The position numbers and the translations under genes were made by a program. Shown in pieces: positions 1,659-47,548 of a stretch of DNA of 48,642 nucleotides. How positions within the stretch are numbered: the stretch's first letter is position 1; the number at the start of each line of letters is the position of its first letter. The stretch is taken from assembly GCA_018985235.1 (NCBI GenBank), contig JADGIG010000016.1:1-48642 (forward strand), in the 5' to 3' direction. Source of the stretch: Sanchytrium tribonematis (taxonomy: Eukaryota). Under the pieces are notes generated by a model. The model was given only the letters and a program-made list of their open reading frames with translations, was not told the DNA's origin and searched no databases.

Positions 1659-3693
1659 ATGTTAAAAGAAAGACTGGAAAAGTGGGAGCGATATTCCAAC
1701 CGATTTAGAGACTCAGTTTCTGAAAGAAAGGCAGATAGTATCAAGGTCACCTTACCTGACGGCAAGATCTTGGACGGCTTGTCTTGGAAGACAACTCCTT
1801 ATGAAATCGCCAAAGGAATCTCCAATAGTTTGGCTAATAAGGTGGTTGTGGCGAAATTAGACAAGAGTGAATTATGGGATCTTCATAGACCATTGGAAAG
1901 AAATTGCGCTTTGGAATTACTTGATTTTAGTACTTCTGAAGGAAAGCAAGTCTTTTGGCATAGCTCTGCGCATGTATTAGGTGAAAGTATGGAGCAAAAA
2001 ATGAAAGCACTTCTTGGGTTTGGGCCACCTCTAGAGGATGGGGGCTTTTTTTATGAAGCAACCTTATTTAACCAAGAAACAACTCAATATGATCGTGTAA
2101 TTTCTCCACAGGATTTTAAAGAACTAGAAGCTCAAATGTCAGAAATTTGCAAGGAAAAGCAACCTTTTGAGCGCTTGGTTCTTACTAAAGCGGAGCTCTT
2201 GGACCTTTTCTACTACAACAAGTACAAGGTTGAATTGATAGAGTCGAAAATACCAGAGGAAGGAAGTACCGTATATAGATGTGGTGATTTGATCGATTTA
2301 TGCAAAGGGCCGCATATACCAGACACTGGGTATATTAAAGCACTAATGTTGACCAAAAATTCAGCTGCATACTGGCTTGGTAAGAAAGAAAATGATACTC
2401 TTCAAAGAATTTATGGTATATCTTTTCCCAGTGCTAAGGAGCTGAAATTGCATAAAAAATTTCTGGAAGAAGCTGCCAAGAGGGATCATCGTAAATTGGG
2501 TAAAGAAATGGAGCTTGTCATGTTCAATGAGTATTCACCGGGTTCTGCATTTTTCTTACCGCATGGAACGCGAGTTTACAACAAACTGGTTGACTTTATT
2601 AAGCTGCAATATCGTGAACGAGGATTTGAAGAGGTCGTTACTCCAAATGTTTACAACACAAAACTTTGGGAAACATCTGGTCACTGGCAGAATTACCAAG
2701 AAAATATGTTCTCTTTTGATGTAGAGAAGGAAAAATTTGCTCTGAAGCCAATGAATTGTCCAGGTCATTGTTTAATGTTCAAATATAGAGATCGAAGCTA
2801 CAGAGAGTTGCCGCTTCGACTTGCAGACTTCGGCGTATTGCACCGAAACGAATATAGTGGTGCCTTATCGGGCTTGACTAGAGTCAGAAGATTTCAACAA
2901 GATGATGCGCATATTTTTTGCACAGTTGCACAGATTAAGCAAGAAATGATAGGCTGCTTAGAGTTTTTGCAAAAGGTGTATGGTATATTTGGTTTCACTT
3001 TCGAGTTAAAACTTTCGACCAGGCCCGAAAAGTATCTTGGAGAGATTGAAACTTGGAATGAGGCGGAAAATCTATTGAAGACAGCTTTAGATGAGTTTGG
3101 AAAAACATGGACATTGAATGAAGGGGATGGTGCATTTTACGGGCCTAAAATTGATATTACAGTCCGAGACGCCCTCCAAAGAGCTCACCAATGCGCAACA
3201 ATACAATTAGACTTTCAACTGCCTCAAAGGTTTGGTTTGGAATACCGTAGCGAGAATGGAATGGATCGTCCGGTGATGATTCATCGAGCCATACTTGGTA
3301 GCGTTGAGAGAATGTTTGCAATTTTATTAGAGCACTTTGGTGGCAAATGGTAGATTTAATTAATTCAGGCCTCTTTGGTTGTCTCCACGGCAAATTTTAT
3401 TTATTCCGGTTGCTAAAAAGTACAACGAATATGCAGAAGAGCTAAGTAAGCGACTCATTAAAGCCGGGTATTTTTCTGAAGTTGATAGCTCCGACTTGAC
3501 ATTGAATAAGAAAATAAGAAATGGACAGCTATTACAGTATAATTTTATCTTAGTTGTAGGTGAGGAGGAAGTTGAAAAGCAAGCGGTAAACGTTAGATCT
3601 CGCGATGATGAGTCGAAAAAGTCTAGAGGAGAAACGGTCTCTTTCGATAACTTCGTAGAGTCTTTGACCCATGCAATGAAAAACTATGAATAA
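1659..3693 (+). CDS. THS1: Threonyl-tRNA synthetase, cytosolic type; exons 1659-3349 and 3369-3693
   Basis: TGS domain, [31 protein letters not shown] and [11 protein letters not shown] motifs; splicing restores [12 protein letters not shown] and joins the anticodon-binding domain. Confidence 0.97.
3350..3368 (+). other. 19-nt spliceosomal intron (ThrRS)
   Basis: GTAGATTTAATTAATTCAG; contains an in-frame TAG; removal restores [11 protein letters not shown]. Confidence 0.93.
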
Positions 3694-3759
3694 AAAAGTA
3701 ATTTTAAAATTTAATTGATTGGTGCGACTTTTATTTGAATCAAGCGGGGACATTTTGGA

Positions 3760-4554
3760 ATGCAATTGTTACTACATGGTCTTCAGCTTCCGATTTCTCC
3801 AGTCCATAAGAATCATCCTGGCTATTACAAATCTTACATATTTACTGGAGATCCATGCACAACAACAGTACCAATCCAACCAAGTGTTTTGGTATTTGAT
3901 ACTTTCAATTGCACCGAATCAAATCTATTTGAACATATTTCCAGCTTAAATATTGTCGGCACAATCAGTAATATAACAGAGGTACCAGAACATTTAAATT
4001 TTTACTTTATGAGCTCTGATGATATACAGCAAGTTTTGGAGGTTGTAAATCAATATTCTGAAATGTCTAGATATCCTATTATCGCAATAACTGAGCCAAA
4101 CCATCTGTGGCAATTGATACTAATTATCCTGCTCATATTGCTGGGTATAAGCTGTATTTTAAGTGGGATTCTACACTGGTATCTCTATACTCCTGAAGAG
4201 CCGCAAGTCAGAATGCTTACAGATTTTCAATTTAACAGCTTTCACAGGATTGACAAAACTACTTATGCCCTCAGCCATGACGATAAAAGCGTGGAAGAAA
4301 ATTTATGCCCAATTTGTTTAGATTATTTAAATATTGAAATTATGACTCAGTTGCCTTGCTACCACTACTATCACTCAGAGTGTATTCAATATTGGTTGAC
4401 AAAGAAATCTTCTTTATGTCCTGTTTGTAAACATGACTGCTTGGACGATGTGAGCGAAGATAAAGGTTTTTTTAGACGCATTTATGAAAAGTGGATGGCA
4501 TGGAGGTTACCCACCGAAGATGAGGATGAAATTGAGCCTTTGCTAAATGCTTAA
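3760..4554 (+). CDS. Transmembrane RING-H2 E3 ubiquitin ligase (RNF13/RMR-like)
   Basis: Hydrophobic TM (LWQLILIILLILLGISCILSGIL) followed by CPICLD...LPCYHYYHSECIQYWL...CPVCK. Confidence 0.85.
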   Translation: MQLLLHGLQLPISPVHKNHPGYYKSYIFTGDPCTTTVPIQPSVLVFDTFNCTESNLFEHISSLNIVGTISNITEVPEHLNFYFMSSDDIQQVLEVVNQYSEMSRYPIIAITEPNHLWQLILIILLILLGISCILSGILHWYLYTPEEPQVRMLTDFQFNSFHRIDKTTYALSHDDKSVEENLCPICLDYLNIEIMTQLPCYHYYHSECIQYWLTKKSSLCPVCKHDCLDDVSEDKGFFRRIYEKWMAWRLPTEDEDEIEPLLNA

Positions 4555-4971
4555 AATACTACAATAAAATTATTTACTCAACATTTTTACAATTCTGACA
4601 TACTTTTTGACCTATGAAGCATACATTTTGGGGTAACCTCGTCGTGGACCGGATTAGGTGCTCTCGTTATAGGACTTCCGACTACTGTGTGATCGACAGA
4701 GTTCAGTCTATTAATTAGTATGGGTTTCGGGGAAATTACTTTTTCGGAAGAAAGCATTACTTCAATTTGCAACAAGGGGCAAGTAGAAGACATCCTAAAA
4801 CGCTCAAAATCGCCATGATATCAATCCTACTGACATCCCAGAACATCGTACTAAAATTCAAAGATTGAAAAAAATTGCATATCTTTCGCTAATCCAATTG
4901 ATAAATTGAGGTTTCCTAGATGTACTATACTTTCTGCTTCATATATCACTTATTTATTCAAATATTGAAGT

Positions 4972-8496: not shown

Positions 8497-9986
8497 ATGG
8501 ACTCGGACGAAGATTTTTACTTTTCGGATCCAGATAGTCAATTTGCAAATGACGAAGGATTTGCAAATTCACCTCCAATGGATCAAGAAAAGGAGCATAA
8601 AACTTTAGATACTTACTTACCATATTCCTCTATAAGCTATCAAATTTGCAAATCAATTCAGCCACTATTACAACAATCCACTTCGACAGTCTCCCAGGTA
8701 TTAAATATATCAGAGGATTATGCAGCGATGCTCCTCCTCCAAAAAAAATTTAAAACGGAAGATTTAATTCAAGAAGCAGTTGGGGGTGAAATGCTTAAAG
8801 CATTAACAATCACAAATAAAAGGTCCTCAAGAAACAACTCCAAAATATGCAACATCTGTTATATAAATGATGTCGTTATAACTTTGTCATGTTCACACTA
8901 TGCTTGTGTAGATTGCATCAAGCATTTCATTAAATCTGGTTTGAATGAAAATACAATAGAGAAATTGACTTGCCTGGAAATGAATTGTGATTACTTCATG
9001 ACTCGCTCATTTATCAAAGAAGTAGACGAATTACTAATTCCCAAGTACGACCAACAATATTCGAACAAATTTATTGACGCATCATTGCAATTAAAATACT
9101 GTGTTAAATGTAATGCAATAATACAAATTAATACATCCCTTAATCTATACACCCAGTCCTCGATTATTCCAATTGTGACATGTGACAATTGTTCCACTCA
9201 ATTTTGTTTTAGCTGTTCGAAAGGCAATCATTTACCCATACCTTGTAGCCAATTAAAAAGGTGGCAAAAGAAGTGCATGGATGATAGTGAGACGGCTAAC
9301 TGGATTCATGCCAACACCAAAGAATGTTCCAAATGTAATAGTACGATCGAAAAGAATGGTGGCTGTAATCACATGGTTTGCAAACGATGCACTTATGAGT
9401 TTTGCTGGGTTTGTATGGGTCCTTGGTCGGAACACGGAACGCAGTGGTACAACTGTTCGAGATTTGAGGAAAATTCGTCTTTAGAGGCTAGAGACAATCA
9501 AGCAAAGTCAAGAGCTGCATTGGAACGCTATCTATTTTACTTTAATAGATACGCGAATCATGAACAATCGTTGAAATTAGACAAGGAACTTTATTTAAAG
9601 ACCGAACTCAAAATGGAAGAGATGCAAAAGCAATCAAATTTATCTTGGATTGATGTCCAATACATGAAGACAGCTGTGGATATACTCGGGAAATCAAGAA
9701 CCATTTTAAAGTACAATTATTTTAATTTAGATTTACATATGCGATGGCCTATTATCTCGCCAAATCGAATCAAACATATATATTTGAGGACAATCAAAGA
9801 GACCTAGAGATTGCTACGGAAAATTTGTCGGGTCTACTGGAGCAGCCAATTACGCAAGAAAAATGTCATGAATTGAGGCAGCAAGTGTTAGACAAAGCAA
9901 GTTATGTGAACGCCCGAGTAGATATTCTTCTAAAAGATACAGTTCAGGGGCTTTCCGAAAGTAGATGGGAGTTTAGGGTAGATTAA
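8497..9986 (+). CDS. Ariadne-family RBR E3 ubiquitin ligase; exons 8497-9710 and 9731-9986
   Basis: RING1-IBR-RING2 (NTKECSKCNSTIEKNGGCNHMVC) plus Ariadne domain; splicing gives LKFTYAMAYYL. Confidence 0.95.
9711..9730 (+). other. 20-nt spliceosomal intron (Ariadne)
   Basis: GTACAATTATTTTAATTTAG; removal corrects the frameshift between ORFs 8497-9807 and 9744-9986. Confidence 0.92.
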
Positions 9987-9991: not shown

Positions 9992-11042
9992 TTACTGCAG
10001 TCGATTTATTATTGCGCTTGTAAACTCTGTTGTAGTGGACTTACCGCCTAAATCACCAGTTAGTATTTTCTTATCAGCAATAGTATTCATAACAGCTTGC
10101 TCGACATTGTCGGCATAACTATCTAATTTCATGTGTCTCAACATCATAACTGCAGACAGCAATAAGGCTGTTGGATTCGCTTTGTTTTTAGACGCAATAT
10201 CCGGAGCTGTGCCTAAATAAACGTAGTATACCATGCACACTTTCAAAAATTGAAGCAGAGGTGCCAATATTTCCAGAAGGAGTCAGACCTAGACCTCCAA
10301 TTAATCCGGCGCATAAGTCAGATACAATATCACCATAAAGATTCGGCATTACCATAACTCGATCGGAAAAGTATTCAGGATTTGAGACAATTTGAAGTGC
10401 AGCTCTATCAATTAGCATACTTTCTAGTTGAATAGAAGGATATTTTTTGGAGATTTCCTCGCAAGATTCTAAAAACAAACCATCGCACAATTTCATAATA
10501 TTGGCTTTATGTACTACACAAACTTTGGGGCGTCCCATTTTCTTTGCGTACTCAAAGGCGTAAATTGCAACATTTTCGCTTGCTTGTCTTGTAATTAGTT
10601 TGATACTTTGAACCACACCTGGCACCACCTCATGTTCAATACCAGAGTATTCTCCTTCTGTATTTTCTCGAATCAAAACAGAATTGACATTTTTAAACTT
10701 TGTGGGATAGCCAGGAATAGAAACACACGGACGTACATTGGCGTAAAGGTCAAATGTTTTTCTAAGCAGTAAATTTAAACTCATATGTCCTTTTCCAACT
10801 GGAGTCTCTAATGGTCCTTTTAATGCAACCTTATTTTCATTGATTGATTTAACAGCTACTGGTGGAATTTCAGGTTTTCCAGTACTGGCATTAAATTGAG
10901 GTTCAATCTTCACTCTTTCCCATTCAATGGGAATTTGAGCAGCCTTAAAAATTTCAACTACGCTTGTGGATATTTCCGGACCAATACCATGTCCAGGAAT
11001 CAAGGTAACTTTGTGCATTCTACGTGAGATTTGCTTCAACAT
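9992..11042 (-). CDS. IDH2: NAD-dependent isocitrate dehydrogenase, catalytic subunit; exons 11042-10232 and 10212-9992
   Basis: [16 protein letters not shown] with the catalytic Asp pair; splicing restores FESVHGTAPDIA. Confidence 0.93.
10213..10231 (-). other. 19-nt spliceosomal intron (IDH)
   Basis: GTATACTACGTTTATTTAG on the minus strand; restores VHG-TAPD. Confidence 0.93.
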
Positions 11043-15467: not shown

Positions 15468-16395
15468 CTATATGTGAGACTCATAAATTGTGATTATTCC
15501 AAAAAATATAAACACTAAGCCTCCAACTATTGAAACTAAATTAGTTTTGATTACTAGTTTTAGCTGATATTCTTTGCGCTACAGCATTTCCAAAGGCAAT
15601 AGCAAGTATTGTACAGAGAGCGTGTCCCAAAATAGAGCCTAACACAACAGGGAATAACCCACCACTTGCGCCAAGGGCAATAGTTGATAGCTGGCTTCGG
15701 TCGCCCCACTCTGCTAGAAAAATCATGGTAAATGATTGTATCAATATTGGCGGAATACCACATATTATCAAAAATTTTGATCTTCCAGAAGGATGTAGTT
15801 TACTCTCACCAGAATCCAAGTTATCTTCGTCGAGTTCTTCTTTTGCTTCCTCGTATTCTGCTTTGATCTTATCTGAGCCCCTCTCGTTAATCATCAAGAT
15901 ACCAAATATTATCAATACGACACCGGCTATTATTGCAACAATCTGAGTATGAATTAAGTTGGGAACTAAATGACCCAAAAAGGCAGAAATCAATGTCATT
16001 AATGTCATAGCCAACATATTCGCTGTAACTATAATCCACTTCGGATGCCTCATACCCAAAATTGCACACAAAAAGAAAGTCTTGTCTCCAATCTCACTCA
16101 AAAAAACACTTCCTAGCGATATCCATACGAATTTCATATTATAAAAATTGGGAAGAGATTGTATTTCTTCTGCTGCTTCCTCCAAGATTTCATTATTTTC
16201 TTTTAGAGAATCTTGCTTATTTGCAATATCAAAATTTTTGATTATAATTGCGAGGAGTTTCTTTTGCTCTTGATCCAACTTTATATAAAATTCTTCTAAG
16301 TCTTTCCTTGTCCAGCTGGGTATACCAATTTTCTTACTCTCGGTGCCTGATAAACTTGTAAGAAGTATAAAATGGAAAAAAATATTCAGTTTCAT
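15468..16395 (-). CDS. GDT1: GDT1/TMEM165 (UPF0016) Ca2+/Mn2+ transporter; exons 16395-15555 and 15535-15468
   Basis: Two E-x-G-D-(K/R) motifs (SEIGDKT, AEWGDRSQ); splicing adds the missing last TM ISIVGGLVFIFFGII. Confidence 0.93.
15536..15554 (-). other. 19-nt spliceosomal intron (GDT1)
   Basis: GTAATCAAAACTAATTTAG on the minus strand. Confidence 0.9.
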
Positions 16396-19205: not shown

Positions 19206-20553
19206 ATGAAAACAAATTATTCACTAATCGAGGAGATAGGAAATGGGTCATATGGAACAGTCTACAAGGCCGTTAATAATACAACCGGCGCACTCGTTGC
19301 TTTAAAGCAGGTTAGTATGGAGGATGGAACAATAATGAAAGAAATTGAATTTATGAAATCATGCAACAATGAGTATATCATCGGGTTGGATGATTATTAC
19401 ATTGAGGAAGAAACTTTGTATATTGCCATGGAATTCTGCCCTGCTGGTAGTATTGCTGATGTAATGAAGTATACTGAGTTAACTTTGAACGAGAAACAGA
19501 TTCAGTCTGTTGTAAGAGATGCCTTGTATGGTCTCGATTATCTTCATCAAAGATTAGCTATTCATAGGGACATTAAGGCTGGAAATTTGCTTTTAACAAA
19601 ACAAGGAAGAGTAAAACTGGGCGATTTTGGAGTCTCCGCAAGTTTAAGTGACGCAGTAAGAAAGAGAAACACAGTTATTGGGACGCCATATTGGATGGCT
19701 CCAGAAATAATTCAAGAAATAGGATACAATACATCGGCGGATATTTGGAGTTTAGGCATAACAATTATTGAGATGGCAGATTCTAAACCACCTTTTCATC
19801 ACATTCATCCCATGCGTGCCATTTTCATGATACCAAATAAACCACCGCCTACAGTCCAAGATCCTCCTAAATGGAGTTCGAAATTTAATGATTTTGTCAA
19901 ATGTTGCCTGGAAAAAATTCCGGATGAAAGACCAACGGCTAGACAATTGATAAATCACGATTTTGTAAAAAATGCGCCTGAATCTAATATCCTTTTAGAG
20001 CTAGTGCAGTTGTCACTTGAAATTAAATCTCGACGTAAATTTGAAAAAACTTCAAAAAGTTCCGAAAATATCGAAAAAGAACTAGATCAAGTCCCGCAAG
20101 GAACTATAAGAGGTGGAAACAATTCTGGGACAACAGTAATTCGTTCAGATGATAGCTCAAAATATGGTACTACAGTATATAATACCACAAGGATCGTAGA
20201 TGGCCATGACTCCGGAACAATGGTTCTAAAATTAGATGAAGACGACAAATCGGCAACCATACGCCCAAATAGGTACAATATTATTGCATCAAATTCTAAG
20301 ACAATTAGGCCATCGCAAACGAAAATAGACGTACTTTCAACTTACTAAGACTACCTTAATCCCTACAACTCAAAAAATGATTCCTGATTTGCTTGAAAGT
20401 ATAGAGAAAATGGAAAAAATTGAAATGGAGGAATACCTTCGAGTTGCTGATCGCAATCTAGAAAGAGAGCTGGATCAAATTAAGGATAAATATGCAAAGA
20501 AAAAGGAGCCTTTAATTTCGTCGATCCAAGCAAAGGAGAAAAAATTGGGTTAA
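19206..20553 (+). CDS. STE20-family Hippo/MST1-2-like kinase with C-terminal SARAH domain; exons 19206-20330 and 20350-20553
   Basis: HRDIKAGNLL, KRNTVIGTPYWMAPE and IHPMRAIFMIP; exon 2 encodes EEYLRVADRNLERELDQIKDKYAKKKEPLISSIQAK (SARAH-like). Confidence 0.88.
20331..20349 (+). other. 19-nt spliceosomal intron (MST kinase)
   Basis: GTACTTTCAACTTACTAAG; contains the apparent stop; removal opens a 68-codon SARAH exon. Confidence 0.85.
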
Positions 20554-22768: not shown

Positions 22769-23165
22769 ATGAATTCACAACCTCCACAAAATAGAAAACA
22801 TCAATGGTGCCTGGACACGCTTCAAACTTGTAGGGATATTTGTCATCCAACTACAGATATTTCGTGTAACGACGGTACATTAAATTATACCTGTCCTTGT
22901 GATATCAGTAAGCAGCCAAAATCTATTGAGATATATTCTTGCGGTTATGCTGTTGATGTATGCAAATACAAATGTCCAACGTATGCCATATTTATTTAGC
23001 AATGATACAGTGTGTTCAAACTACTGCGAAAGCCAAAGATGTTTACCACAAATTACTATAGTTCAAAAGCCAAATAATAACTCCGCTATACAGTTTGACG
23101 CAGGAGTTGCGGAGATGTCAGTATCTGTTATTTTTTATGTTTTGATGATAATTTTATTAAAATAA
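22769..23165 (+). CDS. Small Cys-rich protein with C-terminal hydrophobic anchor; exons 22769-22980 and 23000-23165
   Basis: Spliced 125 aa protein with 12 Cys (WC..TC.DIC...C..GTLNYTCPC...C...C...C...C...C...C) and tail SVSVIFYVLMIILLK. Confidence 0.75.
22981..22999 (+). other. 19-nt spliceosomal intron (Cys-rich protein)
   Basis: GTATGCCATATTTATTTAG; joins two overlapping short ORFs and continues the Cys spacing. Confidence 0.85.
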
Positions 23166-29300: not shown

Positions 29301-31138
29301 CTGTGAAAAATCACTCAATTCTTACGCAAAGGAGCTGTTTACGAGCCAGTCATTACAGTCACAAAAACTAATTAGAGCATTTTATAATTGCAATGATTTT
29401 ATACCCATTTTAGACATATTGTTCAAATACATGATTCTAATTAACAGATTAGATCTTATTGCTGAACTGTTGCACATTCTTAAAGACTTAAACTATAGAA
29501 TATGTGACGATGAGTTAAATTTGATATTCGATTATTTGCTCGGGACAAACGAATTTCGACTTTTGTACAATTTGTATCCTTATTCTAAAATGTTTTTGAG
29601 ACTTGTGCACCAAAATAGTGAAAAGTCTCTATCAGAAATCAAATACATTCTCAGCCGAAATGATTGCAAAGATTTGATAAATGACAACATGGATTTGATA
29701 AATACCATTAATAATGGAGAACTTCTAAATATGATACAATCACATATCAAATCTAAACCTGACAAGAACATAGCCGAAACATTAGATGTGGCTGATTTCT
29801 CCAACGAAGCGCTGGAAAGTGTTGATTCAAGATATAAAATTGAGAATTTCAGTGACAAATTTAGTCACAAGTACCCTACAATAAGAAAACAGCCTTCTTT
29901 TTTTGCTACGGAACAGATCATATCTCAGCTAAATCTGTGTGATCCAACAAAATCCTACTACGCTCTCAAAGAATTTGAAAAATGTTTGCTCAGTGATTCT
30001 ATCTCTACAGCTCAATATTTAGACTCTTTGATAAAAGTTATGGTAGATAATTTTAATAAGCATTTAAATTTAAGTTTACCGGCAAATACTAGGCTGATTA
30101 AGGAGTTGTGTGCTGTATTTTTATCTTTATCAACTGACAGTAATTTGATAAGCGCTTTAAGCGACTCCTCATTAGAAGAATTCTTTCGCTGCTTGCTGTT
30201 TAATCTCAAGTCTGTTAAAGACTCTAAAATTCAAAGTTTTATTAATTCTGTTATTGTCAAATCGTTGTACAACTTAAATAGAAATCGCGCATTTCAGTAA
30301 TTTAAATTAACATAGATTGCTTTTTAAGCTGTTGACAGACACTTGTAATTTGACAAATGTGGAAGAATTTGACCAAAAATGCACTCTAATTTCAAAATGT
30401 ATGTTGAAGCTGACAAAAGATGTACAAATTAAACATGCTGATCGCACCAATTACTTAGATTTAAAAACTTTGCTGTATGTAATGCATGAGTTTTTTGGGT
30501 TTCTACAATCTGTAGGAATGGATCAAAAAAACAATGATAATTCTGAAGTCCCTTTGCGTTCAGTGAAAACGGTGCTTGTTTATTTATGTAAAACCATTGG
30601 TGATGAATTTCAAATCTTTCTCGATAGATGTTTGGACGAATTGAATGATGACATCTTTCAATTTTTCAAATCCTACACGGATAAGGGTGAAAACCAAGGA
30701 AATGATAGTAATTCCTCGAGTGGCCAGAACAACCATAAGATTGATCTTGAAAGTATTTTTTTTGAAATTATTAACCAAGGAACGGTTTCTACTATACTCG
30801 AAAAGGTAGTTGGCCTGAAAGGCCAATATTCCATATCAGATAAGCGACTTAAAGATATTTTAGATAATATTGAAATCGATCCTACAACCAAAAATTTTCT
30901 TTTCAAGCATTTGAATTTATACGAAAATGAACTTCAAATCCCGGAATTTGCAATGTTGGATTCTCATACCAATGTTTTCAACAGACCACTTAATTCAAGG
31001 TTAAAACTTCTTCAAAACAAACTGAATAATCTGCGAGATTCAACGAATGCGCTCGATGCAGAAATTGACGAGGAGCCCGCATCTATCAGCTCTATCCAAA
31101 ATCTAGCAGATCGTTTAAAAAAAATCCAAAGCCAATAA
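26317..31138 (+). CDS. XMAP215/Dis1/Stu2-family microtubule polymerase (multiple TOG domains, divergent); exons 26317-30296 and 30316-31138
   Basis: Repeated TOG starts (HWKIRKE, KWKIKFEAL, DWKTRLE, QWKLRKEAL), DKNVNV and DSNKNL, C-terminal KCMLKLTK and PLRSVKTVL. Confidence 0.85.
30297..30315 (+). other. 19-nt spliceosomal intron (XMAP215)
   Basis: GTAATTTAAATTAACATAG; joins ORF 26317-30300 in frame to ORF 30317-31138. Confidence 0.88.
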
Positions 31139-31150: not shown

Positions 31151-32430
31151 ATGGCACCATTTTTATATCTAATCGTTATTGCTTCAAACGTCTCGTCTGT
31201 TTATTATGATTACAGCGCGACAGCAATTATAGATGACATCATCGCGTCTCAGACTTCAAATTCAAGTTTAAATCCAGAGAGTTTAAAATACTCTACAGCA
31301 TCTACGTCTACCATTTCAAAAGTTTTTGTCGATTTATCGCCTCCTACCATCCCGGATAATCCCTCGTTAATGGACCAGCTAGAAGCTAACCAAACTTGTT
31401 CTCTGACAAGGGTAGACCTGAACAGATGCTTAACAGATAAAATTAGCTTGTTTATAAATACGAGGTTTGAATGGTATTTTATGTTGGTGTTGAATATTTG
31501 TTTATTGATTTTGGGAATGGTCTTGTTTGCTAAAATCAAATTGAAGGAACTTGTAATGAAGAAATCAAAAAAAAGAACGGCAGGAGCCTGGGCAAAAGTT
31601 AGCTTCATTTTTATTTTGCCAATTAGTCTTTTCAATTTGTTGATCTTATTAACTCCCAAATTTCCCGCTGCGTGTGCATATTTGCCTTCTATAATGGGAT
31701 TTGCTCTTATATGTTTATCAGCATTGCACCTGATGTCTTTGATAAGAATTATCGTGCGACTAGTAGTTATCAGACCTCAGCTTGTAAGTACTAGTATGAA
31801 AGCGACGCCAGGAAATCCAGATGAAGATTACGTTGAGCGAGCCCCCGAAAAATCTAAAGGGGCATTGTTAATAGATATATTGTGTCAGGTTGGTGTCATT
31901 GCAGCAATTCTGGTAGATTTTGCGATTTCAGGTTCACTTTTGGCAACCAATCCAATGACTATTGGGCAACTTCGATCTAGCAATGGAATTTCAGACTTAT
32001 TGACTTGTAGACCAGCTTATCAAGACGAATTTGTCAAGTCATTCTTCATCCCAAAGATATTAGTATTCACCGCTATCGTGGCGATTTCGGTATTTTTAAC
32101 AAATAATCCGCAATATTTTGCCAGCGCAAAACTCGACGACGTACCAGAGGGTAAAGAAGACACTGCTTTAGCTCTGAAGTCAATGTAGAATATTATTCAT
32201 ATAGTGCTTTTTATATATTGTTTGTTCTTCTTGCAGTGATGTCTTCTTTAGCAATTCATTTTTTGTACCAATACGACGATACTCATCCAATCTACTCCAT
32301 GTTGCTAAAGGAAAATTTACAGTTGGAACTGTTTTGCTCATTCATAACAATGCTTATCATGACTTTAATCTACATTCATAACTTAGAATACAAGAATAGA
32401 ATTAAAGAAGTGAAATTATTTACCTACTAA
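31151..32430 (+). CDS. Seven-transmembrane protein, class C (7tm_3/GABA-B-like) GPCR-like; exons 31151-32184 and 32205-32430
   Basis: Signal-like N-terminus; five TMs in exon 1 and two more after splicing; Cys at the top of TM3 (CAYLPSIMGFAL...IRI) and a Cys in the putative ECL2 (LTCRP). Confidence 0.55.
32185..32204 (+). other. 20-nt spliceosomal intron (7TM protein)
   Basis: GTAGAATATTATTCATATAG; removes the stop and joins in frame to ORF 32218-32430. Confidence 0.85.
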
Positions 32431-34983: not shown

Positions 34984-34989
34984 ATTTTA

Positions 34990-36481
34990 TCAGCCAATTA
35001 GTAGTTCTAGTATTGATATAAAAAATTCGTTACCGAAAGAAACTAATTCTTCCCTGGAAATGCGATAAAGTTCTGGATTATTATTGATTGCATACTTTCT
35101 GTAATATAAAAAACCAGCCATAGGTTGGCCGAAAACGCAAAACACACACCAAAATATCATATTTCCCAGAGTGTTAATACCTTTAAAACCCGGTCTATAA
35201 AATGTTCTATACCACTTGTCAAACCTTTCCGTTAATATGATTAACGGAACCTGGCCAAAAATAGCCCAAAAAGCCCACATGTTATAAATGCCGGTAGGTA
35301 CAGCGACAATCCATTCGTGAAATATAGCCGAAATCAAAAATACAAGTAGTCCTGCTTGAAACTTATTGATCTGAACTGTCTCGCCTTTTTTATTCTTAGA
35401 TTGCAACAAGGGAACAAAAACATGTCTCTTTAACCACTGGTGTACGGGTTGATTCCTATATTAATAATAAAAACCAAAGTCTCCAGTATGTTGCCAACTC
35501 ACTAGAATTCCACCATTCTCTATAAAATAGACGGTCTCCAAACTGAGTAATCTCAGCCCAAAAATACAAATAAGCGTGAAAAAATCCATAAAACATGGCT
35601 AGCCAAATTAAAGATACAGATAAGGAAAGTTTTAATATGCGTTCCAACAACTGAAAAGAAGTCATTTCTCTAGATTTTATCATTTGAATAGAATTTTCAA
35701 GAGTTGGCTGGGCATATTGCTGGGCCAAAATTAGAATAAAACTCATACTCAAGCAAAATTCAGTGAGATATCTAAAGGCTTTCAAAAAACTTCGCGATGG
35801 AGCTTTGGGGTATTCATACTGAAAGCAAAGAGTAGGAATCAGCAAAAATATGCTGTAATCTTTCAGCGTGACCTGCCTATGTTCATTTAATGTAACAAAT
35901 GCAAAACTAAAAAGCTTTAACACCAAAATGGTAGCAAATAATAATGCTCCAATTCCTATTGCAGGATTCTTACAATAACGTCCTACAATGTAGGTTTGAT
36001 CCACTAATAATGATAGGGCATTGACTGAGTGCCACCTCATGGAATTTCGAAAGAAAAACTGATTTTTCCGACCTGCTTCAATAATGAATCCTGAAAAATA
36101 ATGAAATATATGAAAGGCAATGCAGCAGACTAGAAATTGAGCGTCATATAAGCTTAAAGTAGGAAGGTGGACCAAAATTCCGTACTTGGACATATTTTCC
36201 ATTACTAACCGAAAGACCATCGCTAAAGAAAGAGATCCCAATAAATTTACGAAACCAGAATAGTCACTATTAGCAAATTTGTCTAATGGAGCGAGCCTTA
36301 TTTGAGTGTGTACCAAACCGGTGTGAGGTAAAAAGACAGGTTTTTCAACGATAGCCACAGACTTTTCAGTTAAATCAGACTGACTTCTAACAATAGTAGC
36401 ATCACTTCCTTCATCACTAGTAGAAGTAGGAATTCGTTTCCTAACATATTTTCGTTTAATTACTTTTTGTGTCTGTGTCAT
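34990..36481 (-). CDS. MBOAT diacylglycerol/sterol O-acyltransferase (DGAT1-type); exons 36481-35475 and 35455-34990
   Basis: PTLCFQ..YP, FGDRLFYREWWNS and SAIFHE; splicing restores YWRLWNQPVHQWLKRHVF. Confidence 0.92.
35456..35474 (-). other. 19-nt spliceosomal intron (DGAT1)
   Basis: GTTTTTATTATTAATATAG on the minus strand. Confidence 0.92.
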
Positions 36482-37509: not shown

Positions 37510-39145
37510 TTATTCACTAAAATTGTATCTCCAAAGTCTAGCCCGACAATCTCCGCTAGCAGTTGCAAACACTTTTTCAGTTGGAGACACAGCGACACAA
37601 ATAACTGAATTTTTGTGACCTAAATGAAAACAAAAAACCTTGAAGAATAAATTCTGATTCACCAGTATGAGGATTCCAATATTGCACAGTTCTATCTTTG
37701 CTAGCACTCAGTATTCTGTGTCCATCGTTGGTAAAAGAGACACTTAAAACAAAATCTTTATGACCAGTTAAGGTTTTGAGACATTCTGCTTTTCGAGTAG
37801 GGTAATCTCCCAGCCTCCAATACTTAAGTGTCTTATCTAAGGATCCACTTGCTAAATATTGACCATCAGGTGATATAGCTATGCTATAGACGCTGTCTGT
37901 GTGACCGACTAGAGTATCAAGCAGTTCACCGGTAGCAACATCCCAAATTCTTACAGTTCTATCTAAAGAACCCGCAGCAACGATCTTTTGGGAAGGGTGC
38001 CAGCAAACACCGGTCACACCACTATCTTTAGCATTCATGTCAGGGTTCTCAAACGTCTTTATACATTCACCAGAACTTAGCAGCCATATCTTGCAGGTTT
38101 TATCCCCACTACCTGATAATATATATTGCCCATCAGGTGAGAACTCTAAGCTATAAATATCTGACTTGTGACCTTCTAATCGCATTGCCACCTCTGAGTT
38201 TTGAATATTCCATATGCGAACTACCCTATCTTCAGCTCCAGTTGCCAAATAAACCGAATCAGGTGAAAACGACAATGCTCGTACATATAGAGCAGTTTGG
38301 CTCATGGTGTCACTAAGTTGAGTCAGCTCTCTCCCAGTATTAGTATTAAACACTTGTGCTGTAGGATTGCAGCCAGTAGCAAACAGTTGTCCATCTCTAC
38401 TAAATCGAACGCAGCAAACTACTGTTGAATGACCAAATGCATTCACGTGTTGTAAAGTGAGTTTCTTCTGCAGTCTTGGATGTTGAGCTGCTTCCCAGTC
38501 ATCTCCCGAAATTTTGAATTTCGGTGGGATACTGCTAATGTCACATGCATTATAGAAATGGAGACAGACAGCCGGACTGATCGTGTCATTTTGAGGGTGT
38601 TGTTGATGGTGCTGTTGCTGCTGTTGTTGCTGTTGCTGTTGCTGGTGTTGTAATTGCAACTGTTGCTGATGTTGCTGTTGCTGATGCTGTTGGTGCTGCA
38701 CTTGCTGATGATGATGTAAATGTGACTGTTGGCTTGGTATTCCAATTTTTTTGTAGCTGGATGGTGCCAAATTACTAGTGTTAAGAGCTCCACCAGCTTG
38801 CTGCAAAGAAGCACTTGTCAATTGTTGAAGACCAGCGGTGGCATGTAATGGAAGTTGAGTCGAAATCTGTGGTAATTGCTGCGGCAAAGTAACTTGAGGC
38901 TGCATTTGCGTTTGAGAAAGAGACTGTAAACCGCCTTTTTTCTTTAACTCCTCCTCATAAAATTGCTTCATTCGTAAATGCTGTTTTTCTAATTCAAGTA
39001 TTGTTGCATGGTAATGTTGCAAGTCTTGCAAATGCATTTGCAATTTTCCGTTTACATCTGCATCTCCACTATTTCGAATAAGCATATCACATTCTTGTCT
39101 CATAGCATCAAGTAAATCATAAACTCGCCTGTGGGATGGATGCAT
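37510..39145 (-). CDS. TUP1: General transcriptional corepressor Tup1; exons 39145-37639 and 37619-37510
   Basis: Tup_N ([12 protein letters not shown]...MKQFYEEE), polyQ linker, WD40 repeats ([22 protein letters not shown]); splicing restores [12 protein letters not shown]...[12 protein letters not shown]. Confidence 0.95.
37620..37638 (-). other. 19-nt spliceosomal intron (TUP1)
   Basis: GTTTTTTGTTTTCATTTAG on the minus strand. Confidence 0.93.
38598..38731 (-). repeat. Imperfect CAG/CAA/CAY trinucleotide tract encoding a Gln/His-rich linker of Tup1
   Basis: Plus strand shows runs of tgc/tgt/tgg triplets; protein [45 protein letters not shown]. Confidence 0.9.
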
Positions 39146-39491: not shown

Positions 39492-41319
39492 TTACAACTG
39501 AGAAGAATCGAATCCCAACGAATGAAGAAAAATATTAACATTCGCAACAGCCCTTGAGCTGGCAACTTTGTTAAAATCCTTTGCAGGAGTATAAGTATAT
39601 CTCAAACTCTGACCAACAGTAAAAGATGCATCTTTCTCCGCAGACGCATTCCACATTACTCTATCGCGAACTTCCGAAACAATTTCTGTCTGTATTTCGG
39701 CATCAGCACTAATGACCATAGCGGCAAGGAATTGCCATATGAAGCTATCATTTGTTAATTTCAAAACATAATCTTCACAAGAAAGCGAATTGGTAAAATG
39801 GGATAATATTTTTGGATCAGGAAAATACACATACTGAGGTGGGAACGCAATAGCAACATACAATTTAATTTGCTGGTACATTTCATTAAACAATAAGTCA
39901 AACTTTTGATTGTTCTTCTCTGAGGTTTTTAAGACCTCAGCACGGCTTAAAATTGCGGTTAAGATTAAAATTCCAGAACTGGTTCGAACTACCGCTGACA
40001 AAGTTAGTCCATTTAGCAAAATTTCTAAACACTCAGTTAAATCTTCCCATTCCATATCCATAATAGTATTTTGAATGACATTAAAAGCAGTAGACTGCCA
40101 AATATCAAAATTTTGAAGATATTCTAACACAGTATTGAAATGTGATTCCAAATAATTCGGCAAATTCTCGATTTTGCTAGCTAGCCCTGAGAGATATTCA
40201 TTTATCGCATGTAGGGAATTTTGGACTTGATCCCACGTAACAATCAAAGCTGAGAATTGCAAGGACTTCAGCAAAGATTTTATGATCAAGATACAGTGCG
40301 AGTCAGAGAGATATCTAAATGTCCTGGGCATGACTTTCATCATCTTTCTAAAATTTAATAGTTGCGAAAATTGAACCGAACTAAATAAGAAGCATATACC
40401 TGTTCAATATACATTCGATTGTATCAGACAATTTTTCGGAGTAAAAAAACACATTCTTTTCAATATCATTTGATGTAAGCTGTGTTTTTGAATGAGAGAC
40501 GTCATGATTTTGCAATCTTTTAGCTTTTCTCTTCCAAGTTTCCAACTCAATGACAGATTCGTAAATATCCTCAATATACTTGAGCGGCAACTTACCGTCT
40601 AAGACGCCTTTATTCTCATAAGCGTCAATATTGACAATTGGAATGTCAATGGCTTGCCTTGGTTTTTTACTAGTGGCAGAGCTTACTTTACCTAATGCAC
40701 CTTCTATGACAAAGCTTATACCTATATTTGCTTTTTTCTTTTCAACAATTTTTTCCAAAGTTTGATTAAATGTTTTCTTTTTCTTTTTGGAGCCTTTGAC
40801 TAATAACTGAAGATAATCTCCACTAGATTGTCTGCTTTTATCACCCAGTTCCTTTCTAACCATAAGGTATATGTTGTTATAAAAGTCGTCATCATATTCA
40901 TCAGTTATCGCTATCTGTGACATAGCCATTTTAAGAATGAAATTCTGGTCATTAGTGTTCATAACAAATCCTTGCTTTTCGGATTGCTTAAAAGATTTAG
41001 CTTTCACCTGGATGATGTCTTTCTCAATGTCTTCAACTGTTGTGGGTGATTTCAGGTTCTTCGCAAATTCTTGTTTTACTAATAATTGATATTCGATCAT
41101 TTCCAAAGTGAGAGGTTCGTCAATGTTGTGCTCAAATTCGTCACTCACTGACTCTTCGCTAATGCTAGTTTTCAAATTCGATTTCTTTGACATTGTGACG
41201 CTGATTTCACGGAGTAAAATCATCGGACTATAATCGCTGATACTTATGGAATTTGTCAATGATTTTTTGAAAATTAGATAGGAAAAAAATTGGAAATTTT
41301 TCTCATGTTGCTGAATCAT
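39492..41319 (-). CDS. PAT1: mRNA decay factor Pat1; exons 41319-40400 and 40380-39492
   Basis: MNTNDQNFILKMAMSQI..DEYDDDFYN, EGALGKVS...KKPRQAID, LWQFLA-like IWQFLAAM, NVNIFLHSLG; splicing gives FSQLLNFRKMMKVMPRTFRYL. Confidence 0.85.
40381..40399 (-). other. 19-nt spliceosomal intron (PAT1)
   Basis: GTATATGCTTCTTATTTAG on the minus strand. Confidence 0.88.
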
Positions 41320-41326
41320 TTCGTAT

Positions 41327-44300
41327 TTATTTTGAATCTAACTTCAATAGCATTAATTTGAAAGTTTCCCCTAAAATTTCTTGATCTTCTTCTATATCAA
41401 CATTCATTTTCTCACTTATTATGAGCGGTACAGATTTAATAGACTGTTCAATAATATTCTTTTCTAAGTCAAGAACAGAGAGCAAATTTTGACAAGACTC
41501 TTGCATGATAAAATATCTTACATTATCAGTTGGAACCATATTTGCTTTTTTTCTTAACCTTTGGACACGATTAATCAATTCACGAGCAAAACCTTTTCTA
41601 TAGAGTTCATCATCTATCTCACAATCTAACAAAACAATAACTTGACCGTCCATGTTTGCGTTATATTTTGAAAGCTCCGGGGTTGATTCAAAGAATCGCT
41701 GAACAACAATCTCGCTATCATCAAGCACATGACCATGTATAGTGATTTTTTTGCTCGATAAAAAGGACTTAATTTCGCTAGTAGACAAAGTTTGAAGAGC
41801 TTTTTTGACTTTAGGCATGTCTTTCTTCAATCGTTGCCCCAAGATCTTGAAATCAGCCTGTAACTTATACTTTACAGAATACTTTTCTTCATCTGCAGTC
41901 AAAAGAATTTCCATAACATTTAATTCCTAAATTAATTTAAAATACCTCTTTGATGTAAACCGATAACAACTCAATATCATTCAAGTAGGATTGATCACCA
42001 TGAATAACGATCAGCTTTCTGAGAGGGGTCTTGAGTGTGAGGCCTTGCTTTTCCCTAATAAGCCGCACCAATTCAATGACAGACTGCATTCTTGAGATAC
42101 CTTGCTGAATGCTCTCGTCTTGATACTTCAATTCAGCATTTGGGTACAGCAAAAAATGAATAGATTGACTTTCATCATCATATTTACCTTCTCCGCAATT
42201 TTTTGAAATATCGGAATCCTTTATAAAGGGCTTCAATTGCAAAAATATGTTTTCTGCCATAAAAGGAGTGAACGGTGCCATCAATCTGGAAATCGTCAAA
42301 ATCACCTCAAACAGTGTATTTAGTGAATGAAGAGTATCTTCTTCGCCAAATTCCCCCTTTAATCTTTTTCGATTAAAACGAATATACCAATTAGTCAATT
42401 GGTCAATAAATAACAGCAGTCTCCCAACCACTGTATAGAGTCTGTAATTGGACATTTCCTCTCTAACAAATGTTATTAGACTTTGTTCTGAAGCCAAAAT
42501 CCAGCGGTCCATAAGATTTTCACTGCTTAAATAAGTGCTATCATAACTATATTCAATGTTGAACTGAGACGTTAAAAGATCGGTTTGTAGCTTGAAAAAC
42601 TTAAACGAATTATACCAAGGTAAAAACACTTTGGATAATAGTTCTTTGACACCCTCCTCCTTAAATTTTAAGGAATCCGCACGAACTACTGGAGAATTAA
42701 TGAGATAGAGTCTCAAAGCGTCAGCGCCATATAAATTTATCACTTTTGAGGGCTCCGGATAATTTTTTAGTCTTTTCGACATCTTTTTGCCATCTTCTGC
42801 GAGAACCAAACCATAAACAATCTGATTCTTAGCAGGTGGAGTATCAAATAAATGCGTACTCAAAACTAAAAGAGTGTAGAACCAACCCCTGGTTTGATCT
42901 ATTCCTTCGGCTATAAATTCAGCAGGAAACGTCGCTTCCATCTTATCTTTATTCTCAAACGGATAGTGTTTTTGAGCGTACGGCATGCTTCCACTTTCAA
43001 ACCAACAGTCGAAAACCTCGTCTATTCGTCTCAGTTTTCCTTTTCCCTGTCTGGAAGGAATCTCCAGATGATCTATGAAGTGTCGATGAATATCAGTTAT
43101 TTCAGATTTTCCAGTTAATTCCTCTAGTTCTTCTACACTTCCTACGCAAATCATTTCTTCCAAATCATCACTAACCCAAACCGGGATCGGGGTACCCCAA
43201 AATCGGTTTCGACTAACGTTCCAATCTATTGCATTTGAAAGCCAGTTCTGAAACCTTTTCTCTTGAACAAAATCCGGGACCCATTTGGATTTTCTGTTAT
43301 TACGAAGCAAGTCATCTCTAACTTTTTCTACCTTTACAAACCATGAGGGAAAAGCTTTGTAAATCAAAGGAGTTTCCGATCTCCAGCAGAAAGGATAACT
43401 ATGAGTTAATGTGCCTTGTTTGATAAGCCTATTTTCAGCTTTTATTTTTCTGCAAATCAATTTGTCAGCTTCCTTTATATAAATACCTTTGAAATCTACC
43501 ACAGCATCCATGAATTTACCTTCCTCATCTACAGGACAAGGAAGTGAGGAAATGTCTGTTCCAATTAAACCGTATTTGAGGCAAACTCTGTGGTCATCCT
43601 CACCAAATCCAGGAGCCTGATGGACAATGCCTGTACCCGAATCGTTGGTAACATACTCATCACACAAAACTCGAAATCCCTCAAGCTTGGAAAAGTAATC
43701 AAACATTGGCTTATACTTTTGATTTTCCAAATCCTTACCAGAGAAAGTCTCCAAAATAGTAAAATTTGCTTTCTTTGGATCCTTGTACAATATATCCAAT
43801 CTTTCCTTGCCCAAAATTAGAGGAATTGATGACAGAGACTCATCAAAAATTTTGATGTATTCATATCGTGGATGAACACATAAGGCCAAATTGGAAGGCA
43901 AGGTCCAAGGAGTTGTAGTCCAAGCCAAAAAAGCAGCAGAATTGTCCAGTAATGGAAAAGAAACTACAACAGCAGGATCAACTACGTCTTTGTAATTTTG
44001 ACCAGCTTCAAAATTGCTGATCGGCGTATGGCAACCTGTCGAATAAGGCATAACTCTACAACCTCTGTACACAAGATCCTTTGCCCAGAGACTCTTAAAT
44101 GCCCACCATACAGACTCCATAAAACTCATATTCATAGTTTTGTAATCATTTTCAAAATCAATCCAACGACCAACACGAGTAACTGTGATTTCCCATTCCT
44201 TTGAGTATTTCATCACAAGATCTCTACAATGCTCGTTGTATTTTCCTATACCCATATCAAGGACATCTTGTCTACCCTTAATATTTAACTTCTTATCAAT

Positions 44301-44561: not shown

Positions 44562-44709
44562 TAGGCGTGTTTCGAAGGAGAAATTATAAAAATTTTTATT
44601 AAGAAACCGCAATTTTATATTAAAGATCTATAGAGTAAAGATATAGCCGCTGTTCCATCACATACCACGCAAAGCGTAAGTGATGTGTAAAACATCATTT
44701 CCCCTTGAA

Positions 44710-44970: not shown

Positions 44971-45098
44971 TAAATAAAATATTTTGTGGATTCTTATTCT
45001 ACAATTTACCCAAGTTAGAATTGATCGAAAGCTTGCATGAATTTATTGTTTAGAGTCGTTGGCAGAAAAATAAAAAATCACAATCAAGGAGATATAAA

Positions 45099-45566: not shown

Positions 45567-45622
45567 GGTAAAAGTAGTCAATTGTAATTGATCGATTTAT
45601 TAACTAAATAATTGAAATAAAC

Positions 45623-45862
45623 TTACTGAAAAACTATTGTCCTACCTCGTTTTCTACAACTTGCAGATTCATCTCTTGGAAGCTCAATCCATCTATGATT
45701 GAAGCAAGTTATCCAGTGTTTTTCAAGGCAATATCCCACACCATTTTCACAATAATCGCTCAAATTTATTTCTTCTTTACGTTGGGTTTTTGGAGGGTAA
45801 ATGTCCCCTGGTTGAAGGAGCACTCTAACTACTTCTGAACAAACAAATGAAAACAAAATCAT
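45623..45862 (-). CDS. Small putatively secreted Cys/Trp protein (CBM19-like spacing)
   Basis: Short hydrophobic N-terminus MILFSFVCS; CENGVGYC...WITCFNHRW...SC motif. Confidence 0.5.
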   Translation of the reverse strand: MILFSFVCSEVVRVLLQPGDIYPPKTQRKEEINLSDYCENGVGYCLEKHWITCFNHRWIELPRDESASCRKRGRTIVFQ

Positions 45863-45931
45863 GTTTTGAGTGAGATACGAGAAATAAATGAAGCGGAGTA
45901 GCCAATCATATCATTCTTTTAATTAAATTTT

Positions 45932-47548
45932 TTATTTGCACAAGGCGGATTCATAAATTTTCAGCTCAATCAAAGCATCTTCCATGTCTTCTCTCATTCT
46001 ATCTTCGAACGAATCTTTAAGAGCATTGACAATCAATGCAACTCTTTCTAGCATTTCCAATCTATCAGAGACAGAAGCAGCAGATTTCGCTTCAAACGCT
46101 AAGACATCCAAATCAAACTTTTGATGTATTTTCTCCAATTTATCCGCTACCGGAATGTCTTCGTTTGTCATCGACTCTACTAAATTGACCAGTTGATTAT
46201 ACTTTTTTAATAATATTGATCCATTTTCCTTCGTTTGTTCAAAGCTAGCAAGTTTACCTTTTAATTCGATCTTACACTTTTCAATCGCTACTAATATTTT
46301 GTCCACTGATTTTTGTTCCAAAGTAGCCACATTTAATTTGGAATCTTTAACCTTTGTTCTCAAAGAATTAATTTTAATTAGAATATCACTTTGCAATTGC
46401 GAGGAGCCATTCAAATACTTCGTCATCTCATCTTTTATCTCATCCTGTTGCCTATCAAGATCAGTTTTGCTAAAATTTCTAAAGCTTTTTGTAGTTTCAA
46501 CTATGGCATCGGCAATTTCGTCGAAACAAACAAAATATTCGTCAGGTAAGTCTTGAACATTTACCGCCTGAACTTTGGTTTTTATAACAATAAAGTCGTG
46601 CGTTGTGGGGCTTTCTCCGTCTTGTCCAAATGGTTTCCCATATATCCCTACTAATTTGGACAAGTGATCAACCGATTTTTTAAACGATTTCGTTTTAAAT
46701 AATTCTGTGTCCTGCGGTTTATATTTAAAGCATTCTTCAATATGTTTTTCCATTAAACTGTGAAGTATGTTTTTTCCTTCCTAAATTAAAATAAATTTAC
46801 AAGCATTTCACCGATTAAAGGGAAACCTTTTTCTTTGGCCAGCTGGGAGGGCGTTTGCGAAAGGCTATTAACAATCTTCGGATCTGCCCCGTGCTTTATT
46901 AGAAATCGAACAAAAGGAATTTTACCTTTTCCACTGACAGCATGTAAACTAAATTAGCAAATAATACACTGTATCTCCTTGCTCAAATTTAACATCTACA
47001 AAAGTACCGATTTTGATAACTGAGCTTCTTTTTGTTTTTGTATTGATGTCCACATTATGATCCAAATAAAGCTTTAATATATCTAATGATTTATAGCAAA
47101 CGTAATGAATAGGCAATACCCCCCAACTATTGAATTGAAATAGTAGTTGCGGTGCCCTTTCAACCACAAACTTCGCGATATGCAATCTGGGCTTACTACT
47201 GAGGCCTAGTTCATGCAAGACATTGTTTTCGTTTCTATCGACACAATCCAATCGAGCACCATATTCTAAGAGTAGTTGAAATATAGTATCATGCTCTTGC
47301 CAAATTGCGTAAAGCAAAGCCGTTCTAGATCCCTCTGTGCTTGTTGAATGATTTGGATCGGCACCCTTATCCAATAACAGCTTTACAATTCTTATATTTC
47401 CTTGTTTTGTAGCTTCCATTAATGGAAAAGTTTGATCTCCTAAAGTAATGTTAACATAACCAGGTAATTCCGATATAATTTCAGAAATCTTATTGTAGTT
47501 CTCTTCCCTGATGTATCTCATAAAATCCTCTTGACTTACCCTAGACAT
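45932..47548 (-). CDS. Ankyrin-repeat protein with C-terminal helical/coiled-coil region; exons 47548-46968, 46948-46801, 46780-45932
   Basis: Ankyrin repeats (PLMEA..GNIRIVKLLLDKGADPN); splicing restores GDTVLHAVSGKG...LIKHGADP and links to ORF 45932-46753. Confidence 0.85.
46781..46800 (-). other. 20-nt spliceosomal intron (ankyrin gene, intron 2)
   Basis: GTAAATTTATTTTAATTTAG; removal gives ...IGEML-EGKNILHSLMEKHIEE. Confidence 0.82.
46949..46967 (-). other. 19-nt spliceosomal intron (ankyrin gene, intron 1)
   Basis: GTATTATTTGCTAATTTAG; restores the ankyrin motif GDTVLH. Confidence 0.9.

Follow-up and report, generated by a model that had tools for sequence, protein, structure and literature searches.

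Genes and Candidate Introns in the Window

The window considered here is a stretch of 48,642 nucleotides (nt) from the nuclear genome of the sanchytrid fungus Sanchytrium tribonematis (assembly GCA_018985235.1, contig JADGIG010000016.1, positions 1 to 48,642), with a GC content of 35.6%. Forty hand-made gene models, separated by a median of 34 nt, span 93.5% of it, and Pfam matches identify, among others, IFT46, threonyl-tRNA synthetase (ThrRS), isocitrate dehydrogenase (IDH), STT3, isoleucyl-tRNA synthetase (IleRS), Pat1, and para-aminobenzoate (PABA) synthase. Fourteen of the models are interrupted by 15 very short segments beginning with GT and ending with AG on the gene strand (Table 1), corresponding to 0.33 introns per kb of coding sequence. 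Twelve of the segments are 19 nt long and three are 20 nt long, and all of the 14 genes are translated without stops once the segments are cut out. Every one of the 15 lies where a preliminary description of this DNA had placed it, and their removal indeed restores the conserved motifs listed there: GKWP, VHGTAPD, IIDDFREA, WNQPVH, LQGHKNSV, KEELNV, and GDTVLH. The same description had held that no longer intron is needed, which is true throughout the window apart from one ambiguous extra candidate at 45604, of either 19 or 23 nt.

Eight segments are in phase 2, four in phase 1, and three in phase 0. Thirteen of the 15 are located at or past the middle of the coding region, at a mean relative position of 0.71 (two introns share a gene), a 3′ bias with p-values of 0.007 in a binomial test and 0.01 in a Kolmogorov–Smirnov test. 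This bias had been overlooked in the preliminary description, as had the sequence motif described below.

Table 1. Candidate introns of the window. Positions start with the left-most plus-strand base; a slash in the motif marks the junction.
Gene	Position	Strand	Length (nt)	Phase	Evidence
Threonyl-tRNA synthetase (GKW/P)	3350..3368	+	19	2	Profile test; stops block both frames
Ariadne RBR ligase	9711..9730	+	20	2	Pieces in register with human ARIH1
NAD isocitrate dehydrogenase (VHG/TAPD)	10213..10231	-	19	1	In register with human IDH3 alpha
GDT1 antiporter	15536..15554	-	19	1	Motif and frame
MST/Hippo-like kinase	20331..20349	+	19	0	Exon 2 SARAH-like match; weakest motif score
STT3 (II/DDFREA)	22083..22101	+	19	1	Profile test
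Small cysteine-rich protein, hydrophobic C-terminus	22981..22999	+	19	2	Motif and frame only
XMAP215/Dis1 TOG protein	30297..30315	+	19	2	Profile test
Membrane protein	32185..32204	+	20	2	Motif and frame only
DGAT1-type MBOAT acyltransferase (W/NQPVH)	35456..35474	-	19	2	Profile test
Tup1-like WD40 protein (LQG/HKNSV)	37620..37638	-	19	1	Exon 2 WD40 match
Pat1	40381..40399	-	19	2	Both pieces match Pfam PAT1
Isoleucyl-tRNA synthetase (KE/ELNV)	41927..41945	-	19	0	Profile test; stops block both frames
Ankyrin-repeat gene, second intron	46781..46800	-	20	0	High motif score; stops block both frames
Ankyrin-repeat gene, first intron (GDTV/LH)	46949..46967	-	19	2	Exon 2 matches Pfam Ank
Extra candidate, absent from the preliminary description	45604..45622 or 45604..45626	-	19 or 23		Full 3′ motif

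Anatomy of the Segments

When the segments are aligned at their 3′ ends, all 15 have T at position -8 and A at position -6, a combination found in 8.8% of the 520 other GT…AG 19- and 20-mers of the window and, if only the 127 AT-rich ones are counted, in 11.8%. Shuffling the interior of each segment gives a probability of about 4e-12 for this pair of columns, which were picked after the data had been seen, the segments themselves having been chosen by frame repair, independently of the motif. Positions -9 and -5 are likewise occupied by a pyrimidine in all 15, and position -4 by T or A; the 3′ element of each segment can be written as Y-T-H-A-Y-W-H-A-G. Its first part, Y(-9) T(-8) H A(-6) Y(-5), is similar to a branch point of the WCTRAY type, a consensus taken here from the relevant part of PMC2483917. 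The whole element can therefore be understood as such a branch point merged with the acceptor, in which the A at -6 would likely be the branch nucleotide. In leave-one-out motif scoring, 12 of the 15 segments score above all 520 background segments, two are beaten by a single one, and that at 20331 is beaten by six.

The 5′ end is far less defined. The donor begins with GTA in 13 segments and with GTT in two, positions beyond are not fixed, and the information in columns +3 to +7 is about 2.4 bits against 8.7 bits in columns -12 to -3 (n = 15, uncorrected). The interiors have a GC content of 12.7% (87% A + T). Counting upstream from the AG, the first GT encountered is the one used in 13 cases; in the other two, a GT only 10 or 12 nt away is passed over. 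The used AG is in every case the first one at least 8 bases past the donor. At 46949, a second GT is present at 21 nt, and the frame is kept by the 19-nt cut only.

Introns of the U12 type (minor introns) are marked by an RTATCCTT donor and a TCCTTAAC branch site. This class was rejected for the segments, whose donor columns +4 to +8 are variable and A/T-rich. Removal by a route other than the spliceosome was also considered, because the introns of fungal HAC1 genes have a similar length of about 19–20 nt. Introns of the HAC1/Ire1 type or the tRNA endonuclease type carry stem-loop cleavage sites in place of GT–AG ends, whereas all of the segments have GT–AG ends and a branch-like A; furthermore, each segment folds only weakly together with its 15-nt flanks (-0.3 to -8.4 kcal/mol, values without a shuffle control), and the window has no Rfam match. 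As for excision at the DNA level, a contig from a public DNA run that carries the sequence (see below) contains neither a joint nor a deletion. Non-spliceosomal removal is thus very improbable.

The extra candidate at 45604 sits at the end of a small open reading frame (ORF; 45623–45862, minus strand). Its 19-nt version directly follows the stop codon, and its 23-nt version starts with GTAAGT and alters the last codon only; the motif score is 5.5–5.7, lower than those of the 15 segments, all of which are included in the scoring model. Among low-GC segments with the strict motif there were no in-frame 21-mers and two in-frame 18-mers, and both of the latter were discarded, that at 17008 as antisense and that at 46894 as part of an unbroken ankyrin match. 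Look-alikes on the sense strand at 15278 (ubiquitin-S27a) and 16557 (PI4K) were likewise set aside, since the frames around them are intact. A scan for 5′ introns, outside which introns in untranslated regions and those splitting a start codon fall, yielded 15 candidates that would connect a long frame to an ATG farther upstream, of which only that at 46781 was convincing.

Boundaries at the Individual Sites

For five genes, every frame-restoring GT–AG, GC–AG, and AT–AC cut was enumerated and scored against a profile of homologues, and in all five the claimed cut ranked first out of 67–164 alternatives. For ThrRS (164 cuts; 60 of 114 homologues used), the cut at 3350 scores 1148.7 bits against 1121.2 bits for the next. 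For STT3 (120 cuts; 118-protein profile), the cut at 22083 scores 1180.7, followed by a 13-nt AT–AC cut with 1171.5 and the next GT–AG cut with 1158.4. The corresponding values are 254.2 and 231.1 for the acyltransferase (DGAT) at 35456 (114 cuts; three homologues), and 136.7 and 123.7 for the TOG protein at 30297 (67 cuts; 11 homologues, whose alignments are ungapped over the join). For IleRS at 41927 (95 cuts), they are 962.6 and 952.4 with a profile consisting of a single homologue, L002, the only one of 59 metagenomic loci to pass the filter. These 59 loci share 39–63% identity with the query and include no close relative; the most similar one (L001, 63%) is uninterrupted over query positions 1–754 and ends before the junction.

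At two further sites, the register is given by solved structures. The pieces of IDH at 10213 rejoin in register with residues 261–268 of human IDH3 alpha, and those of the Ariadne ligase at 9711 rejoin in register at residues 386–387 of human ARIH1 (5udh_A). Homologues thus fix the exact register at 7 of the 15 sites (3350, 9711, 10213, 22083, 30297, 35456, and 41927).

A domain continues across the junction at four others. Exon 2 of the Tup1-like gene at 37620 covers positions 10–38 of the WD40 profile, on which the register rests, and also matches the final blade of Tup1 from yeast (1erj_A, 351–388). Exon 2 of the ankyrin gene at 46949 covers positions 6–32 of Pfam Ank, the two pieces of Pat1 at 40381 are successive parts of Pfam PAT1, and exon 2 of the kinase at 20331 matches Mst1_SARAH with an E-value of 1.1e-4 and 22.6 bits, slightly below the cut-off of 23.1. 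For the remaining four (15536, 22981, 32185, and 46781), the evidence is motif and frame. Exon 1 of GDT1 at 15536 ends at position 62 of the 75 in the GDT1 profile and exon 2 alone has no Pfam match, a 26-nt cut from an upstream GT likewise keeps the frame at 32185, and the frame downstream of 46781 has its own ATG nine codons in, so that a separate gene is possible there.

The Same Interruptions in Relatives

Among named organisms, the closest ThrRS, the one gene with a named record, is that of Amoeboradix gromovi (EP00835), with 84% identity; other named fungi reach at most 65%. This identity indicates that the window likely derives from a sanchytrid distinct from that of the A. gromovi proteome. 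Sanchytrids are described as algal parasites with 10–11-Mb genomes of about 35% GC (PMC8371127). In A. gromovi, the ThrRS stops at the GKW where the unspliced frame of the window also stops, and the ThrRS of two further relatives breaks at the same codon as 3350. The ThrRS gene of the window (1659–3693, plus strand) lacks the usual N-terminal extension, and A. gromovi ThrRS starts equally short.

The read-through tails of ten proteins from relatives were decoded for the length of the intron that they would contain. P0125, interrupted at the same ThrRS site as the window, gives 20 nt with 10 of 10 shifted-frame residues matching, and P0010, interrupted at an STT3 site that is intronless in the window, gives 19 nt with 9 of 9 matching; A at -6 is forced in both. 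P0259, a DGAT interrupted at another site, gives 19 nt with 19 of 27 residues matching and A at -6 allowed. If the stop codon is the TAG of the acceptor, P0127 and P0256 have 19 nt and P0121 has 21 nt, each with T at -8 and A at -6 forced. In the uniform ultra-short systems of Stentor, Mikrocytos, and nucleomorphs, two to four adjacent lengths below 22 nt account for nearly all introns; the 15 segments of the window and the three relatives' introns of fixed length would fit this pattern if the genome as a whole behaves alike. The preliminary description had spoken of fixed-length introns; within the window, the length is nearly fixed at 19–20 nt, and the possible occurrence of 21 nt or longer in relatives means that "fixed" is better read as narrowly distributed.

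P0259 also encodes the joined W-NQPVH, that is, it exactly lacks the segment found at 35456. This bears on the idea that the segments are never spliced out and that ribosomes get past them in the mRNA by programmed frameshifting or read-through. None of the 15 lengths is a multiple of three, and 11 segments leave a stop-free path for a single frameshift, at the price of about six extra residues inside conserved motifs such as VHGTAPD, GKWP, and IIDDFREA; however, at the other four such a frameshift is blocked by stops in both frames, and frameshifting gives no role to the GT–AG ends or to T-8 and A-6. It can hardly be the explanation.

Equally improbable are assembly or amplification artefacts and decayed pseudogenes. 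A single public DNA run (X1) carries the window sequence and may be the source of the window itself; however, its contig, compared over 29000–48642, spans eight of the 15 segments in a single unbroken, gap-free stretch and differs at one base (T in the window against G at position 30967). Furthermore, ThrRS and DGAT are interrupted in A. gromovi and relatives at the codons affected in the window, and the flanking exons belong to conserved housekeeping genes without stops.

The last residue of two distant TOG proteins coincides with the 30297 junction, which suggests that this junction position is ancestral. A quick version of an STT3 tree (46 of 120 rows) joins the window and P0010 with a support of 100 on a long branch and leaves the pair unplaced among the fungal phyla. 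The trait of ultra-short introns is likely shared across Sanchytriomycota. Public metagenome assemblies also contain uncultured sanchytrid-like fungi on contigs of 10–45 kb; for the ThrRS (P0125) and IDH (P0246) of one relative, the longest contig is in both cases one of 44,948 bases, suggesting a gene neighborhood like that of the window.

Other Features of the Window

Compaction of the window is extreme, several of the gaps between gene models being 0–7 nt. A homeodomain ORF (17701–18111, minus strand) and the PI4-kinase ORF share 23 nt at the start of the latter. IFT46 (202–753, minus strand) is a short protein with the C-terminal Pfam domain only, and no upstream exon was found for it. The three largest gaps (4555–4971, 36500–36771, and 39149–39491) contain only short ORFs of 30–75 amino acids, some of them hydrophobic, without an Rfam match.

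How the Introns May Be Recognized

Taken together, the segments are very probably U2-type spliceosomal introns that would have shrunk near to the smallest size that the sanchytrid spliceosome removes. The motif and the boundary tests thus support the earlier proposal of tiny GT–AG spliceosomal introns in a fungal nuclear genome. In the proposed mechanism, the U2 snRNP (small nuclear ribonucleoprotein) with SF1 and U2AF would recognize the combined branch-and-acceptor element, its A at -6 (base 14 or 15 of the intron) would attack the nearest GT far enough upstream to give a lariat with a 14–15-nt loop and a 5-nt tail, and the first AG past the branch would serve as the acceptor. Intron length would then be set by the fixed spacing between branch and AG together with a steric lower limit between donor and branch, while deletion bias would press from above, so that the spliceosome would need no dedicated means of measuring it.

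A strongly modified, length-measuring spliceosome had been suggested in the preliminary description. Such a machinery, rebuilt with changed snRNAs and lost or truncated factors and actively measuring 19–20 nt, is possible but unlikely. It would fit the very narrow lengths, the low information of the donor, and the choice at 46949, where only the shorter of two GT–AG cuts keeps the frame; furthermore, no label for Slu7, Prp18, or U1-C was found in the part of the sanchytrid annotation table searched. On the other hand, the survey of spliceosomal proteins proposed earlier finds Prp8, SF3B1, U2AF1, U2AF2, SF1/BBP, U1-70K, Prp17, and Prp22 annotated in A. gromovi, as well as a factor of nonsense-mediated decay, and a relative may use 21 nt. 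The gap for Slu7, Prp18, and U1-C is weak evidence, coming from a search by KEGG/KOG numbers in that part of the table, for a proteome that is intron-unaware and about half annotated. Slu7 is described as dispensable at branch–acceptor distances of 9 nt or less in the relevant part of PMC10158995, and its loss would then be a consequence. The proposal of a measuring spliceosome is not borne out, and the narrow length can be explained by the simpler account.

Several points weigh against reading the segments as shrunken U2-type introns, beside the frameshift path open at 11 of them and the possible identity of the sole DNA run with the source of the window. No RNA run carrying the window sequence is listed, and splicing and its boundaries are deduced from DNA. 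Four of the 15 sites have motif and frame as their only evidence. A GT 13–18 nt upstream of the acceptor is found in none of the 15, so that the data bear on the lower limit between donor and branch only outside that range. The inventory of spliceosomal factors comes from A. gromovi, not from the source organism. The evidence base is one 48.6-kb window, perhaps not representative of the genome, and the relatives are known by protein only, so their intron lengths are deduced from protein, not DNA; four of the ten tails (P0126, P0246, P0257, and P0258) fix no length, P0246 fitting 15 nt or longer.

In its widest form, the interpretation would be that all Sanchytriomycota rely on spliceosomal introns of 19–21 nt, the shortest of fungi and animals; that they reached the Stentor architecture with its A at -6 independently, kept U1 and U2AF, and possibly lost Slu7 and Prp18; that a nearly information-free donor is chosen by its distance from the branch; and that introns lie in the 3′ half of genes, against the usual rule. 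We lean slightly toward this combination.

Consequences for Public Protein Sets

The preliminary description had warned that gene finders would mis-annotate such genes. Indeed, EukProt contains all 12 unspliced read-through ORFs that were looked up by exact sequence (of the 14 intron genes), indicating that mis-annotation is real. The ORFs of the two published sanchytrid genomes were called on contigs with TransDecoder (PMC8371127). The SF1/BBP annotation of A. gromovi is divided between two neighboring ORFs of the same contig (PMC8371127, supplement file 4, rows 1135–1136), as expected if an unrecognized intron splits the gene. With 14 of the 40 models carrying an intron and 12 genes truncated in EukProt, conclusions on domain loss and gene loss drawn from sanchytrid proteomes need to be re-checked; if introns of 19–21 nt are phylum-wide, about one third of public sanchytrid proteins would be truncated or split.

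Comparison with Known Ultra-Short Introns

Literature searches pairing sanchytrids with introns, or on the shortest introns, found no report (subscription journals were outside their coverage). The main text of PMC8371127, two supplementary files of which were outside the check, has "intron" in a reference title only, PMC10459994 has it in a reference only, and sanchytrids are unmentioned in the portion of the fungal intron survey PMC8476143 drawn on here. In the literature searched, 19–20 nt would be the shortest introns found for any fungus or animal. Tiny uniform introns as such are already known from Stentor, mikrocytids, and nucleomorphs, and the sanchytrid case would be new for fungi. 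The preliminary description had rightly named nucleomorphs and heterotrich ciliates as known cases and had omitted the mikrocytids. 

Of the systems compared, the closest relative of fungi with short introns is Encephalitozoon cuniculi, 13 introns of which have a mean of 35.8 nt and a median of 32 nt (PMC2483917), its miniature introns being about a third of 76 nt (PMC6349667). Its branch hexamer TAAYTT resembles the motif of the window, whereas its donor is a strong GTAAGT-type one (6.2 bits) in contrast to the weak donor of the 19–20-nt introns here. In myxozoans, the lowest median is 22 bp (PMC13644364). Myxobolid myxozoans and Dicyema are, like sanchytrids, parasitic opisthokonts with introns below 30 nt and a donor reduced to GTa (PMC13644364), but their lengths are broader and a weak A-stretch drifts away from the AG as the intron lengthens, while the A of the window is fixed at -6.

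Introns of chlorarachniophyte nucleomorphs are 18–21 nt long (PMC10245619; PMC2483917), the same length class with a donor that is mostly GT(A). Nucleomorphs are intron-dense relict nuclei with more than 800 introns in about 300 genes, and are described as having no branch-point signature, whereas the window belongs to a main nuclear genome with about 0.33 introns per kb and a fixed branch motif. Mikrocytos mackini and Paramikrocytos have introns of 16–17 nt (PMC10245619) and are, like the sanchytrid, parasites with very short, uniform, and sequence-conserved introns. However, only 17–19 spliceosomal proteins and no U1 were found in mikrocytids, while the sanchytrid relative retains U1-70K, U2AF, and SF1, and their metabolic and transporter genes are intronless, while IDH, DGAT, and GDT1 have introns in the window.

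The introns of Stentor coeruleus are 15–16 nt long, the branch A being base 10 in the shorter class and base 11 in the longer one, namely at -6 with a 5-nt tail (PMC9505925). Stentor shares with the window two adjacent length classes, GU–AG ends, AU-richness, the branch A at -6 followed by a 5-nt tail, and the presence of introns in a minority of genes, mostly one in each. In contrast, the introns of the window are 19–20 nt long with the putative branch A at base 14 or 15, have a clearer branch consensus with an invariant T at -8, and are biased to the 3′ side of genes, whereas those of Stentor are biased to the 5′ side; if genome-wide, the 3′ bias would be contrary to the preference for the 5′ side that is described for both Stentor and yeast. 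The Stentor lineage is unrelated, and the likeness is therefore attributed to convergence. A fungus would join the few lineages whose introns are about as small as splicing allows (heterotrich ciliates, mikrocytids, and nucleomorphs). The likely branch A at -6, common to Stentor and the window, suggests that the structure of the spliceosome sets the same limit in both.

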